64,000 bases of DNA. Source: Eledone cirrhosa. Its lineage: Eukaryota. Location of the stretch: contig OZ024742.1 of assembly GCA_964016885.1 (NCBI GenBank), positions 29,326,001-29,390,000 on the forward strand. Reading direction: 5' to 3'. Both the position numbers and the translations under genes were made by a program. Shown here in pieces: positions 5,681 through 41,824 of this stretch; positions within the stretch are counted from its first letter, which is position 1, and the number at the start of each line of letters is the position of its first letter. Under the pieces are notes generated by a model that saw only the letters and a program-made list of their open reading frames with translations, was not told where the DNA came from and did no database searches.

Positions 5681-5872
5681 ACAAAGGAATTGTGGTAAGG
5701 AACCAGATGGACCATAACGCACCAGAGTACTCAATACTTAGGGTAGTAGAGTGGGAAATAGGAAAAAGTATGACCCCGACGGAAGAGCTCAAGCGGTTTA
5801 GACGGCTATTTCTGGACTAAATAGCCGTCGAAACGGCTTGAGCTCTGCCGTCGGGGTCATACTTTTTCCTAT
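5681..5872 (-). mobile_element. PLE-like fold-back insert, family B, with 3' half of a hammerhead
   Basis: Flanked by (TA)n; hairpin 5758-5872. Contains stem II, GAAA, CGGC-loop-GCCG, TC, GGGGTC. Homologous to 14143-14337 and 41620-41824. Confidence 0.75.
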
Positions 5873-6380
5873 ATATATATATATGGTGGGGGAATGTATG
5901 AGTGTACTTTGTGTATCTGTGTGCGTATAGATATGTACATAGATTCATTGGCACCATTCACACAAATACATGTATATGTATGTGTATGTGTGTGTGGGGG
6001 TGTGGGGTGGGGTTATGCATGCTTACATAAATATATGTGTGTGTGTTTGTGTGTAAGCGTCTGTGTCTGTGTGTCTGTATATGTGTAAATACGTACATAA
6101 ATACATCCCACCATCCACACTCATATATATGTACATACATGCACACATACACACACATATATATACATATAATATACATATAATATACATATAATACTCT
6201 CTCTTTCTTTTAAGCGTGAAACTAACACGAGTTTAGGTTAATGCATGTTTGTTCGTTCCTAGTTTTCTGATATATATATACATACGTACACACACACACA
6301 CACACACACATATATATATATATATATATATATATATATATATATATATATATATATATATATATATATATATATATATA

Positions 6381-6826
6381 TTAAAGAGTTAATCAAGATT
6401 CAATGAGTACATCAAAGAATGAGTTTTACAGTAGATTGGAAGCACTCTACAGCAGATATTTTCCAGAGTTATTAATATTAATTCAAATATTAACAAAATA
6501 GATATTCTTATGATCAATTAAATTTTATTATACATATTTTAGAGGTACTGAATTAAGTTCAACAGTACGTCCTCATCAGATAAAATAAAATGATACATGA
6601 CATACCCTGACATGGTAGATGGTTAAGATTTAATCAAGGTAGTGATTAACTTATGAGAAAACTCAATATTTATACCCTAATATTGAGAACATGAGAAAAC
6701 GTAATAGAATCAATAGAGAGAGTGCCGCCGGGGTCCTGACTCTTTTCCCATTACCCACTCTACTACCCTATCGAATACTCTGGTGTGTTATGGTCCACCT
6801 AGTTTCTTACCACACTTTTTTTATGA
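6381..6826. mobile_element. Chimeric PLE-like insert: family A (- strand, 6381-6722) fused to family B 3' end (+ strand, 6723-6826)
   Basis: Left part aligns with 41871-42200. Right part is the reverse complement of 5681-5782 / 14143-14246. (TA)n on both sides. Confidence 0.75.
6522..6586 (-). ncRNA. Type I hammerhead motif with mutated core (GAAA to AAAA)
   Basis: ATTTTAT-CTGATGA-GGACGTACTG...CAGTACCTCT-AAAA-TATGTATA-ATAAAAT; the sibling copy at 21204 has GAAA. Confidence 0.7.
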
Positions 6827-7128
6827 TATATATATATATATATATATATATATACTATAAAGTGTGTCCATAGAATCATTTGATAATATATATACACCAT
6901 TTCCTCTGCCAATTAGCATAATCAACCACATAAAAAATCAATTAGACCAGGCTATAAGATTAAAAGGCACCTATGAAGAAATATTAGATAAATAAACGAC
7001 AGCAATCTCTTCGCGGCCGACCGCCATTACCCAACATTTCAACAGCACATGGAAATCGACTAAATATACCGTCAACCATACACAATTACGTATAAAATTA
7101 AAGTTAGAAGAAATGCGTACACACTTAC

Positions 7129-7370
7129 CAGGATTGTGTCTCTACCCTCGGGGTCCGTTCGCATTTTGAGATATCGTATTAAGGGTAAAATCTCGAGCTT
7201 CGAACTCGTCAGGAAACAAACTCATAGGACAAGTAATTTTCTAAAGTGATCCCCGCCAGAAACAAATTCAAAATGGCTAAGAATCGTGGCGTGGCAGTGG
7301 TCAAATCAGAAAGAATGTGATTGGTTGCTTACGGCGAGTGGGCTGGTTGCTAGAAAGCGCAGGCCCAATA
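7129..7370 (-). promoter_or_regulatory. Candidate promoter / first exon ending in a consensus splice donor
   Basis: Locally CpG-enriched. CCAAT motifs at 7320 and 7365, YY1-like CAAAATGGC at 7269-7277, ATG at 7164, then 12 codons to CTG|GTAAGT at 7129. Confidence 0.3.
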
Positions 7371-9534
7371 TTGCCCAAATTGCATCTCAACCTAGTGGAA
7401 GATTATTAAATATAAAGATTTACATATACACAAACTAAACTAAACAAAGTCACAGATATATATGTATATATATACACACATATATATATATATATATATA
7501 TATATATATATATATATATATATATATATATATTTATATATATAAATATATATGTATATATATGTATATATATATATATATATATATATATATACATATA
7601 TAGCTATATTGATACATACATTCAAACATACATTAATACATTAATACATTCAATCATACTTACATAAATACATACATTTATACATACATACATGCAACAT
7701 GCATATAATACATACATAAATATATACATACACGCATTATACATACACCATAAATACATACATACGCACGATATATAATACAACATATATATATTACATA
7801 CATATTTACACACAATATATAATACAACATACATATAATACATAAATACTTAGACACAATATATAATACAACATATATATGATATATATAATACATACAT
7901 GTACACAATATACATACAACATATATATACAATACATACACCATATATATAATATATACATACTTAGACACAATGTATAATACAACATATATATAATATA
8001 TATAATACATACATACTTAGACACAACGTATAATACAACATATAATAATATATATAATACATACATATACACAATATACATACAACATATATATACAATA
8101 CATACAACATATATATTATATAAAATTTAGTAAAATAATATAAAATTTTTCACAATAAAAAAAATAGTCGAAAGAGGAGGAGACAGTTTGATTGTGTTTA
8201 TTCCATCTGTGAAACAGAATATTTAACACACGCGCTCTTCGAGTTCTCCCAAAGAGGGTATCAATTTGCTGAAACATACAGCCGGACTTATTAACTCAGC
8301 CGAATTTCAATTAGATTCGGTAAACATATAACAGACATCTCGGAGAAGTTGAGTCGCCAATAAGATTAATTCTTCCTTCTTTGGGCCGGAATCTGACACC
8401 TTCTGCTCCCCCTCTTTCTCTCATCCGTACGTTCCCTCTTCTGTTTTTACGTTTCTGCCCTAACACTGACTTGTTTATACCGTGTATGCATGTATGTATG
8501 ATCGTATGGTTGTATGGTTGTATGGTATGTATGTATATATGTATGTATGTATGTATGTATGTATGTTGTGTATATATATATATATATATATATATATATA
8601 TATATATATATGTATGTATATGTATGTATATATGTATGTATATATGTATATCTTTGCGTATATATATACATATGTATGTGTTAGCCCCCCCTCTGCTTAC
8701 GTGTATATATATATATATATATATACATATATATATATGCATATATATATATATGCATATATATATGCATATATATATGCATTATATATATATATATATA
8801 TATATATAAATATATATATATATATATATAAATATATATATATACATATATATACATATATATACATATATATATGTGTATATATATATATATATATATA
8901 TATATATATATATATATATATATATATATATAAATATATGTGTGTGTGTGTGTGTGTGTGTGTGTGTGTGTGTGTGTGAGTATATATGTATATATATATA
9001 TATATATATATATATATATATATATATATATATATATATATATATATATATACACACATATATATGTGTGTGTATACATATATATATAGTTGTATGTTTT
9101 CGTGTGTATGAGTATAGCAAAGGGAAGCTGTAGTTATAAAGATACAGATTTATCAATAGCTAATCTTAAATATCAATGACACTGAACTGTTATTGAAACG
9201 GCTTAAACTACAAGTAAAATCATTAAAATACAACAATAAAAACAAATAAAATAGATAGCTTCAACTTCTAATTGATTAAAGACTCTTCATATTTAGATAA
9301 AATAATATGAAATCTCTACAATGCAAATATAATTATAGTATATCACGATAGAAACAAAAATATTTTACACCTAAACAAAATACGGATCTGATGTGTGGTC
9401 ATGCTGTGTCTATTGTAAAATATGATTTCTTTTATTGGTGTTTTAGGTTATTGTTGTTGTTTGTTTTGTTTTTGTTTAGTTTTTTATTATTAAATTTCAC
9501 CTCACATGACCCTGATGTGACATTGGCACACTCG

Positions 9535-10250
9535 TGTGAAGCTGGGGAGAGATGTAGGCTAATTATAAAAATGTAGGTCCTCATAAAATTGTCTCTATAT
9601 TTCATAAGCAGGCCTGTGGGAAGTTGGCGGGAGATCTAGGCTAATTGTAAAAATGTAGGCCCCTATAAAATTGACGCTATGTTTCATAAATAGACCCGTG
9701 GAAAACTAATAAGAAACCTAGGCTAATTATAAAAATATAGGTCCCATATAATTGGGAATATGCTCAGGCCATATGGAAAGTTTACACGCCTAAATTTGGT
9801 AGTAGGCTCTGAGCAGATGAAATGTAGGGCATGTTTAAAAATATTCATTAAGTATTTCAATAATCAATGATATATATATATATATATGTGTGTGTGTATA
9901 TACAAGAGTCAGTGTTGCCACATATGTACAAACTATATTTGCATAATACAATTCTTTCGATATCGATCAGCTAAGGGTACAGTCAAGGTTACGGAGCCCG
10001 ACTCTTTTTCGACATTTCATCAGATATGTAACTGCTTTTAACTTCACCTCGTAACCCGATATGTCATTGGTAGGCCTGTGGGAAGTTAGCGAGAGATCTA
10101 GGCCAATTGTAAAAAATATAGGCCCCATATAACTGGGAATATGCCCAAGCCATATGGAAAGTTTACGCATCTAAAGCTGGTAATAAGTTCTGAGCAAATG
10201 AAATGTAGAGCATATTTAAAATATTCACTAAGTATTTTAATAACTAGTGA
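9535..10250. repeat. About 82-bp tandem repeat (3 copies) plus a local duplication at 10070-10250
   Basis: AGGCTAATT(A/G)TAAAAAT recurs near 9556, 9638, 9720 and, as a variant, 10100. Downstream 9740-9870 is repeated at 10125-10250. Confidence 0.75.
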
Positions 10251-40832: not shown

Positions 40833-41016
40833 ATATATATATATATATAAAATATTTAAGTATCGACAGAGAGAAAAAAAAAGAGATAAGCGATACATAT
40901 ATTTAGTTGCCAATAGCTTGTGTAAATGTGGTCAATACTTGTGTCTACAGGGTTAAATATTAGAAGCGTTAATATCTAGCGGGCGAGAATATAAGCAGAG
41001 CGGTTACAAGTGGAAT

Positions 41017-41103
41017 GAATACAAAGGAAAATATACCGTTAACACATGTTTATATACAATTTTTATATAAACATGTTTTAACGGTATATTCTCCTTTGTA
41101 TTC
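41017..41103. repeat. Fold-back hairpin related to family C
   Basis: GAATACAAAGGAAAATATACCGTTAA / TTAACGGTATATTCTCCTTTGTATTC; the GGTATATTCTCCTT motif is also at 43028. Confidence 0.7.
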
Positions 41104-41416
41104 TTCTACTTATATATATATATATATGGTGTACTAACTGTTCTGGAACTACTTCTCTCTCTCTCTCTCTCTCTCTCTCTATATATATATATATATATAT
41201 ATATATATATATATATATATATATATATATATATATATATATATATATATACACAGAGGTATCCACAGTAAGTGATATTTTCTAACTAACCTTACATAGA
41301 TCAATAACGGAGTATAGCTACAATGTATTATCATCATCTAGAAACGATCGTACAGCAGTGAAGTATATCTCTAATGACTTGATTTTTTACTTCATTGTTT
41401 TAACTTATATATATAT

Positions 41417-41601
41417 TTAAAGGTTAAACAAGGTTCAATGAATAAATCAAAGAATGAGTTCTACAATAGATTGGAAGTACTCAACAGGAAGGTTTACCGG
41501 AGTTATTAATATTAATACAAAATATTAACAAAAATAGACATTCGTGTGATCAAGTATACTTGATCACACGAGTCTATTTTTGTTAATATTTTGAATTAAT
41601 A
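41417..41601 (-). mobile_element. Short family A fold-back insert (turns before the ribozyme)
   Basis: Family A terminus TTAAAGGTTAAACAAGGTTCAATGAATAAATCAAAGAATG; loopless centre GATCAAGTATACTTGATC. Confidence 0.8.
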
Positions 41602-41619
41602 TATATATATATATATATA

Positions 41620-41824
41620 ACAAAGGAATTGTGGTAAGGAACCAGATGGACCATAACGCACCAGAGTACTCAATACTTAGGGTAGTAGAGTGGGAAATAG
41701 GAAAAAGTATGACCCCGACGGCAGAGCTCAAACCATTTCGACGGCTATTTCTGGACTAAATTTAGTCCAGAAATAGCCGTCGAAACGGCTTGAGCTCTGC
41801 CGTCGGGGTCATACTTTTTCCTAT
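41620..41824 (-). mobile_element. PLE-like fold-back insert, family B
   Basis: Nearly identical to 5681-5872 but with a different turn point (CTGGACTAAA|TTTAGTCCAG). Confidence 0.8.

Follow-up and report, generated by a model that had tools for sequence, protein, structure and literature searches.

Palindromic inserts of a probable Penelope-like family in Eledone cirrhosa and their possible origin by two-ended priming

Three palindromic inserts of one repeat family, family B, lie in a 64,000-nucleotide stretch of the Eledone cirrhosa genome (assembly GCA_964016885.1, contig OZ024742.1, positions 29,326,001 to 29,390,000 of the forward strand). This whole stretch is called the window, and its composition is that of eukaryotic DNA, AT-rich and rich in microsatellites. 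Each insert (B1, B2 and B3) carries a tail at one end only and closes, at the other, at a fixed base of the inverted arm. Judged by this architecture, the inserts are very probably the 5'-truncated 3' ends (stumps of the pseudo-long terminal repeat, pseudo-LTR) of a high-copy Penelope-like family. Family B is a new family of a known kind, and the element itself is an ordinary member of its class. The layout is fitted somewhat better by two copies primed from opposite DNA strands than by one copy that folded back.

Layout and abundance of the family B palindromes

Read from the tail end, B1, B2 and B3 follow one order, with 77 nt present once, an arm, the turn and the inverted arm. The arms of B1 measure 54 bp, with 3 mismatches and a spacer of 7 nt; those of B2 measure 56 bp (5 mismatches, spacer 6 nt) and those of B3 64 bp (2 mismatches, no spacer). 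The 77-nt tail of B1 is identical to that of B3. The original prediction had placed three palindromes at 5681–5872, 14143–14337 and 41620–41824, and both the coordinates and the arms were confirmed. It had missed a fourth copy, B4, which is joined to a family-A end. The hammerhead positions listed for the inverted arm of B1 were matched by eye to the hammerhead numbering.

5681–5757, minus strand: B1 tail, 3' end of the element; presumed starts of reverse transcription at about 5681 (outer) and at 5758 (inner)
5758–5822, minus strand: B1 tail-side arm; spacer 5812–5818, AAAT junction microhomology 5819–5822
5819–5872, plus strand: B1 inverted, tail-less arm; stem II 3' strand 5819–5829, GAAA 5830–5833
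5833–5837/5847–5851, plus strand: stem III of the B1 inverted arm, with the palindrome GAGCTC in its loop
5852 and 5853–5858, plus strand: C17 (5852) and presumed stem I 3' strand (5853–5858) of the B1 inverted arm
14143–14337: B2, diverged subfamily, 86% to B1, B1-type layout; arms 14220–14275 and 14282–14337
41620–41824: B3, B1-type layout; zero-spacer palindrome with centre AATT at 41759–41762
6723–6826, plus strand: B4, the fourth 3' end of family B, without B inversion and truncated within the region of stem III

The inner (inverted) arm of B1–B3 stops at the same base in each, where TTTTCCTAT meets (AT)n, and all three inserts sit within (TA)n or TA/TG repeats. On a coordinate d counted from the tail end (d=1 at 5681), the tail-bearing arms all stop at d=141–142, on the 3' side of stem II. 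The subfamily-diagnostic bases of B2 are present in both of its arms, as had been claimed, and the arm substitutions in B2 and B3 are mostly of the CpG type. Library preparation can give rise to perfect palindromes. The arms of B1–B3 differ by 2–5 substitutions, which rules out chance and library fold-back, and both fixed ends recur in raw reads from a separate study; the odds that the palindromes are assembly or library artefacts are thus negligible.

B1 was compared with four of 19 public runs (X1, X5, X17 and X18), three of organism A and one of organism B. About 21,000–22,000 records aligned to B1 in each of the three organism A runs, and 43 in the organism B run. These counts mark family B as abundant; run depth was not taken as copy number or as turn frequency, the libraries being of the restriction-site-associated DNA (RAD) type and the contig depths summed. 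The repeat (AT)n stands before 5684 in 6858 raw reads of X17 and 7748 of X18, and before 5758 in 648 reads of X18, so both fixed ends recur outside the window. Exact-pattern scans of metagenome, genome and viral contigs gave no match. No RNA run with B1 was among those listed, which carries no information on expression.

The runs also hold joints between arms, 15 of 108 of which were visible. Four of these 15 are opposite-strand joints, set aside as artefacts of the palindromic reference, and 11 are same-strand joints; 566 loose-end and 90 between-letter rows stand outside the counts. All statements on joints below refer to the visible same-strand set. The runs contain at least 11 different joints. 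In all 11 of the set the tail arm stops at 5706–5768 and the inner arm runs at least 20 nt further; six of them have a tail arm that does not reach the inner start. Eight resume at 5819–5822 with short extra pieces, a pile-up that does not measure a hot spot, since the reference arm stops at this place and contigs that surround a unique joint are short. Two further X1 contigs span a B1-like centre.

Hammerhead half and native stem II

The inverted arm of family B reads as the 3' half of a hammerhead ribozyme: the 3' strand of stem II, GAAA, a stem III of five pairs whose loop is palindromic, GUC and a strand rich in G. A 3'-half descriptor (C-GAAA, five-pair stem III, UC) matched at 5830, 14293 and 41782 on the plus strand and at 41739 on the minus strand; taken alone it is weak, with 0–5 matches per shuffled window (30 shuffles). 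CTGANGA is absent from B1–B4, where the copies are truncated, and from either strand of B1–B3. The description of a hammerhead 3' half lacking CUGAUGA in the three inserts thus held. Rfam gave no hammerhead match for B1 at E ≤ 10, and likewise none for inserts D and F of the window, which contain complete motifs. No hammerhead family was among the Rfam matches listed for the window (150 of 348), and its miRNA-type matches reflect hairpins and microsatellites. Folding of the truncated B sense strand yielded no hammerhead fold (z 0.0 and 0.33); without the partner strand, the 3' strand of stem II can pair with the 5' strand of stem III. The hammerhead reading of the B half draws on its context, as neighbouring inserts of the B-type layout contain complete type I motifs, 12 positions in the window (families A, C, F and I) versus none in each of 30 shuffles. 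On the sequence of its 3' half, family B is a candidate self-cleaving hammerhead. Compared with the minimal metazoan motif of Penelope-like elements, it has a full five-pair stem III and a long stem II.

The central hairpin of B1, GACGGCTATTT and AAATAGCCGTC around 7 nt, had been taken for the native stem II. This was not borne out. Two X5 contigs depart from B1 at 5821/5822 and continue for 89 and 132 letters that have no place on B1. Loose ends of longer copies are visible to 30 letters, and in these two contigs the last visible letters are complementary to 8 nt of the stem II strand, exactly in one and with alterations in the other. The 5' partner strand of stem II appears about 22 nt past the turn in longer copies. 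A consensus of 49 X1 contigs (agreement 0.53) matches the X5 extensions over about 16 letters. Because the longer copies differ past the turn, the native stem II would be about 22 nt longer, an interrupted hairpin. The hairpin with the 7-nt loop in B1 is a non-native junction product with a microhomology of 0–4 nt. The closing pair G10.1–C11.1 and the 5' strand of stem I were not seen within the visible 30 letters, nor was CTGANGA, whose expected place falls just past them. In both RAD runs, molecule ends pile up at 5688 and 5822. AATT occurs at 5688 and is missing from B1 at 5822, which suggests, for a presumed cutter of this site, that many copies continue as AAATT at 5822.

Inserts of the same layout and the origin of the inversions

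Thirteen two-ended inserts were delimited by hand in the window, 12 with arms of the same family and one, A4/B4, with arms of two. F (one arm and a distant hairpin), C3 (one arm) and G stand outside this set. The tail is one-sided in all 12 same-family inserts, and TA-rich microsatellites, inside which target-site duplications are unreadable, flank all 13. Hammerhead landmarks could be placed in 11 of the same-family inserts; insert E, which has none, was excluded from that subset. A3, B3 and A2 are neighbours in one interrupted (TA)n tract (41418–42692).

6381–6724, minus strand: A4, 3' end of family A, head-to-head with B4; its core, CTGATGA, is at 6579
21155–21575: A1, two-armed, complete type I hammerheads in both arms; its 10-nt spacer belongs to the tail-less arm
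41418–41602: A3, two-armed, centred without spacer on TATA, which lies downstream of the cut site of the hammerhead
41873–42692: A2, two-armed, complete hammerheads at 42061 (minus) and 42602 (plus); centre about 270 nt upstream of the core
42900–43182: C2, tail arm ending about 25 nt past the inner start; tail-less arm with a whole hammerhead (43081, plus) and about 75 nt upstream of it
31278–31615: C4, tail arm ending near the predicted cut site; tail-less arm with a whole hammerhead (31364, minus)
44356–44818: C1, two-armed, a hammerhead in each arm; turns upstream of the core
40262–40835: D, two-armed, core at 40601 (minus), 38-nt stem II region; found by eye, missed by the motif descriptor
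3896–5448: I, 1.5-kb, two-armed, outer arms 99% alike; hammerheads at 4053 (minus) and 5358 (plus), microsatellite-rich interior

For the origin of this layout, we see an even chance that reverse transcription is primed by both target strands, from two fixed starts, and that the resulting complementary DNAs (cDNAs) are joined at their ends. An element protein would cut both strands of a (TA)n tract, and each 3' OH would prime synthesis on the pseudo-LTR RNA. Synthesis would begin at either of two fixed starts that lie 77 nt apart, which would explain why the tail is one-sided and why the inner end is fixed. Both cDNAs would end prematurely, and those of family B would often do so on the 3' side of the long stem II (at a break in its tip, or stalled there), and CUGAUGA would be missing from B since synthesis stopped before it. 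The cDNA 3' ends would then join through 0–4 nt of self-complementary sequence (AATT in B3, TATA in A3), and later central deletions may trim the palindrome.

Several observations favour this two-ended priming. Two fixed ends that abut (AT)n are present in B1–B3 and recur in raw reads, and all 12 same-family inserts have the tail on one side. The centres of B3 and A3 are self-complementary 4-mers, and native sequence runs across these from both sides. The tail-less arm is the longer one in three of the 12 inserts, by 10 nt in A1 and by more than 100 nt each in C2 and C4. Since RNA must have been the template of the tail-bearing arm, and a snap-back copy of that arm can be no longer than the arm itself, these three inserts count for two cDNAs, and the longer inner arm in 11 of 11 joints speaks for the same reading. 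Near the inner start of A1, two linked sites tell its arms apart, one arm matching A3 and the other A4; by their sequence, they look as if copied from two RNAs. A4 and B4 are joined head-to-head through about 2 shared nt, with both 3' ends facing (TA)n, which also points to two-ended priming. The A4/B4 segment (6381–6826) either arose as one insert of two families or represents two neighbouring inserts that a deletion has fused.

Other points weigh against two-ended priming or against the class on which it builds. Asymmetric central deletion could account for all the lopsided cases; B1 and B2 could stem from a B3-type centre in this way, and A4/B4 from two adjacent inserts. Arms that end close together and have subfamily bases in common follow directly from snap-back, and two cDNAs that stop alike need a common template end or a roadblock. 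Short-read libraries and the reference favour joints with little or no arm overlap, and the visible joints are few. CUGAUGA was not seen for family B, whose window copies are truncated and whose longer-copy ends are visible to 30 letters. The 77-nt tail exceeds the published 30–40 bp, and no open reading frame (ORF) for a reverse transcriptase or a GIY-YIG endonuclease was found in the window for any hammerhead family, the inserts being too short to hold one.

A possible but doubtful alternative is that one cDNA snaps back on a microhomology of 1–4 nt close to its 3' end (in family B, the AATT by the tip of the native stem II) and copies itself, with spacers and lopsided arms left by later centre-break deletions. 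For the inner end, this account has the second strand anchored at the inner start, possibly annealed to a short cDNA from the other target strand. Self-priming of this kind was proposed in 2013 for palindromic Penelope junctions (PMC3846280) and is therefore not a new idea, and an R2 protein forms snap-back junctions at low frequency (PMC11331408). The shared stop of the B tail arms at d=141–142 agrees with it, as do the arms of most window inserts, which stop 0–34 nt apart and share subfamily bases. B1 and B2 can each be derived from the B3 centre by one deletion: the B1 centre equals that of B3 minus 13 nt, between two AAAT repeats, and the B2 centre equals it minus 14 nt, without microhomology. 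Asymmetric central deletion is the usual fate of perfect palindromes, and central deletions stabilise them (PMC8701086), so B1–B3 may all have turned at one AATT and been trimmed later. The fixed inner end, however, requires a second mechanism, and a zero-spacer turn would provide almost no intramolecular pairing. C2 and C4 would need one-sided deletions of more than 100 nt, six of the 11 joints would need the loss of a whole arm, and the arm haplotypes of A1 are not explained. Unless later deletions are added, snap-back alone fails to account for the fixed inner end, for A4/B4 and for the longer inner arms of A1, C2, C4 and the 11 joints.

The original prediction was more specific, in that the cDNA was to fold on the 11-bp stem II hairpin with its 7-nt loop and prime itself, so that the ribozyme fold sets the insertion architecture and removes its own core. 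We consider this unlikely. An arm does end in the 3' strand of stem II in all three B palindromes and in D, whose tail-less arm stops about 11 nt into that strand, and the eight joints resuming at 5819–5822 agree with the idea, although this pile-up is partly an artefact of the reference arm end and of short contigs. The native sequence past the turn differs, however, which makes the hairpin non-native and leaves at most 4 nt that could pair. B3 turns elsewhere, and the cut in B4 falls within the stem III region. Among the 11 landmark inserts, an arm end falls within stem II in four (B1–B3 and D), all with a long stem II, and in none of the other seven (A1–A3, C1, C2, C4 and I). This grouping was drawn post hoc among related copies, and a hot spot for arm ends in stem II is suggestive and unquantified. 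The B palindromes do turn inside the long stem II, whereas the ribozyme structure does not set the architecture in general.

A fixed palindromic master, similar to a miniature inverted-repeat transposable element (MITE) or a foldback element and copied whole, with subfamily bases homogenised by conversion between arms, is very improbable. Identical outer ends, the identical tails of B1 and B3, three centres that reduce to one by single deletions and the two X1 contigs across a B1-like centre would all suit a master. It is largely refuted by the diversity of joints and by longer, non-palindromic copies; the tail is one-sided, terminal inverted repeats are lacking, B4 has no B inversion, and other families show the B-type layout with variable centres. 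A MITE or foldback DNA transposon was likewise rejected as the identity of the element, given the one-sided tail and the variable centres and joints. The B2 bases in both arms, B4 and the varied joints support the view that B inversions were rebuilt repeatedly, per insertion, and do not all descend from one master palindrome. In this respect the claim of independent inversions survived, while its argument from the turn base failed: the different turn of the 41620 copy does not prove independence, as the other two centres equal its centre minus 13 and 14 nt.

Further features, element class and implications

Several further observations concern hammerhead-bearing or palindromic neighbours. In C4 (31440–31530), the tail arm ends a few bases from the predicted cut site and is accompanied by three extra tandem copies of 18–19 nt, which resemble repeated realignment at a template boundary. 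Insert I has a CTGAGGA core in each arm and a duplication of about 127 nt near its centre. Family F (44840–45680) has a complete type I hammerhead on the minus strand, with its core at 45170, a 40-nt stem II region and an eight-pair stem III; an 81-bp hairpin lies at 45454–45634. Its minimum-energy fold is the hammerhead junction, and 18 of 200 shuffles folded as well. Family E (13829–14100), about 40 nt from B2, has the tail-plus-palindrome layout with a tail of about 36 nt and no recognisable hammerhead. A small palindrome with 40-bp arms (41017–41103) has a short stretch in common with the upstream part of C2.

The rest of the window contains unrelated repeats. At 55200–59400 lies a frameshifted element of the long interspersed nuclear element (LINE) type, matching PF03372 (APE-type endonuclease) and PF00078 (reverse transcriptase), which we take to be L1/Tx1-like. 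A 258-aa frame on the minus strand (34250–35029) has a Cys/His motif and a PD-(D/E)-like stretch and no Pfam match; it presumably corresponds to the restriction-like endonuclease end of a non-LTR element. A dispersed repeat family occurs in many copies, 70–85% alike (12600–13060, 17600–18010, 30150–31160, 32880–33250, 34980–35160, 51200–51830 and 52730–52930). Long, strand-skewed tandem arrays with periods of 9 nt, about 65 nt and 12 nt (23830–30110, 45560–49030 and 60230–62500) produce spurious long ORFs.

Since no ORF for a reverse transcriptase or endonuclease was found, the Penelope class rests on architecture. Two traits of Penelope-like elements are present, an inverted 5'-truncated copy adjoining at the 5' end and a tail at one end only, between two fixed ends. 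A 48-aa frame in A2 has no Pfam match, and a GIY-YIG-like reading of A2 at 42159–42302 was dropped, as it lacks Pfam support and runs antisense to the ribozyme. Published Penelope-like insertions show an inverted 5'-truncated pseudo-LTR, a one-sided tail and (TA)n targets (PMC8557442, PMC3846280, PMC8969392). Hammerheads occur in Penelope repeats, with opposite-strand pairs 100–700 bp apart (PMC4209133), and truncated insertions can be very short, with a median of 128 bp (PMC9977147). The inserts described here resemble such endonuclease-positive elements in the head-to-head inverted truncated copy, the one-sided tail, the (TA)n setting, the type I hammerheads, complete in the neighbouring families, in the repeat and the very short length. 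They differ in the 77-nt tail (30–40 bp in print) and in that no ORF was found; several have a longer tail-less arm, and in one, two families are joined. A text search of one supplement of PMC8557442, in which line breaks can hide matches, gave no match to short B and A motifs.

Animal non-LTR retrozymes (10.64898/2026.07.22.740005) are similar in being non-coding, in their type I hammerhead and in their link to Penelope pseudo-LTRs. However, they form head-to-tail tandem arrays with complete ribozymes, whereas the B copies are single, inverted and core-less. A non-LTR retrozyme identity was rejected, as no head-to-tail tandem units were seen.

In L1 twin priming, both target strands prime on the element RNA and the cDNAs join by microhomology. 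The L1 cDNAs are copied from separate parts of the RNA and produce a 5' inversion, whereas the two proposed here would cover overlapping sequence and produce a palindrome whose second start is fixed.

A Penelope-like precedent comes from the Poseidon protein of Anolis carolinensis, which in vitro cleaves and extends both strands of AT-rich DNA (PMC11167929). Two internal starts of reverse transcription bound the tail, uncleaved RNA serves as the template, and a dimer is predicted (PMC11167929). The two fixed ends and the intact cut site of family B fit this behaviour. In the parts consulted, that paper does not derive inverted repeats from two-ended priming, a step that we infer here. We found no paper that does so for Penelope inverted repeats among those searched, which excluded subscription papers, and the term "twin priming" is absent from the four core Penelope papers among them.

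How Penelope-like elements build their inverted structures, and what the hammerheads do, have been named as open questions (PMC8557442). We tentatively suggest, as a possibility for Penelope inverted repeats generally, that they may consist of two RNA-templated cDNAs from opposite strands, sometimes from two RNAs or two families, with a long stem II fixing both stops. A genome with many stump inserts from multiple families, each with two fixed ends, allows self-priming and two-ended priming to be compared, and arm lengths, arm haplotypes and two-family inserts are discriminators between them that can be counted.

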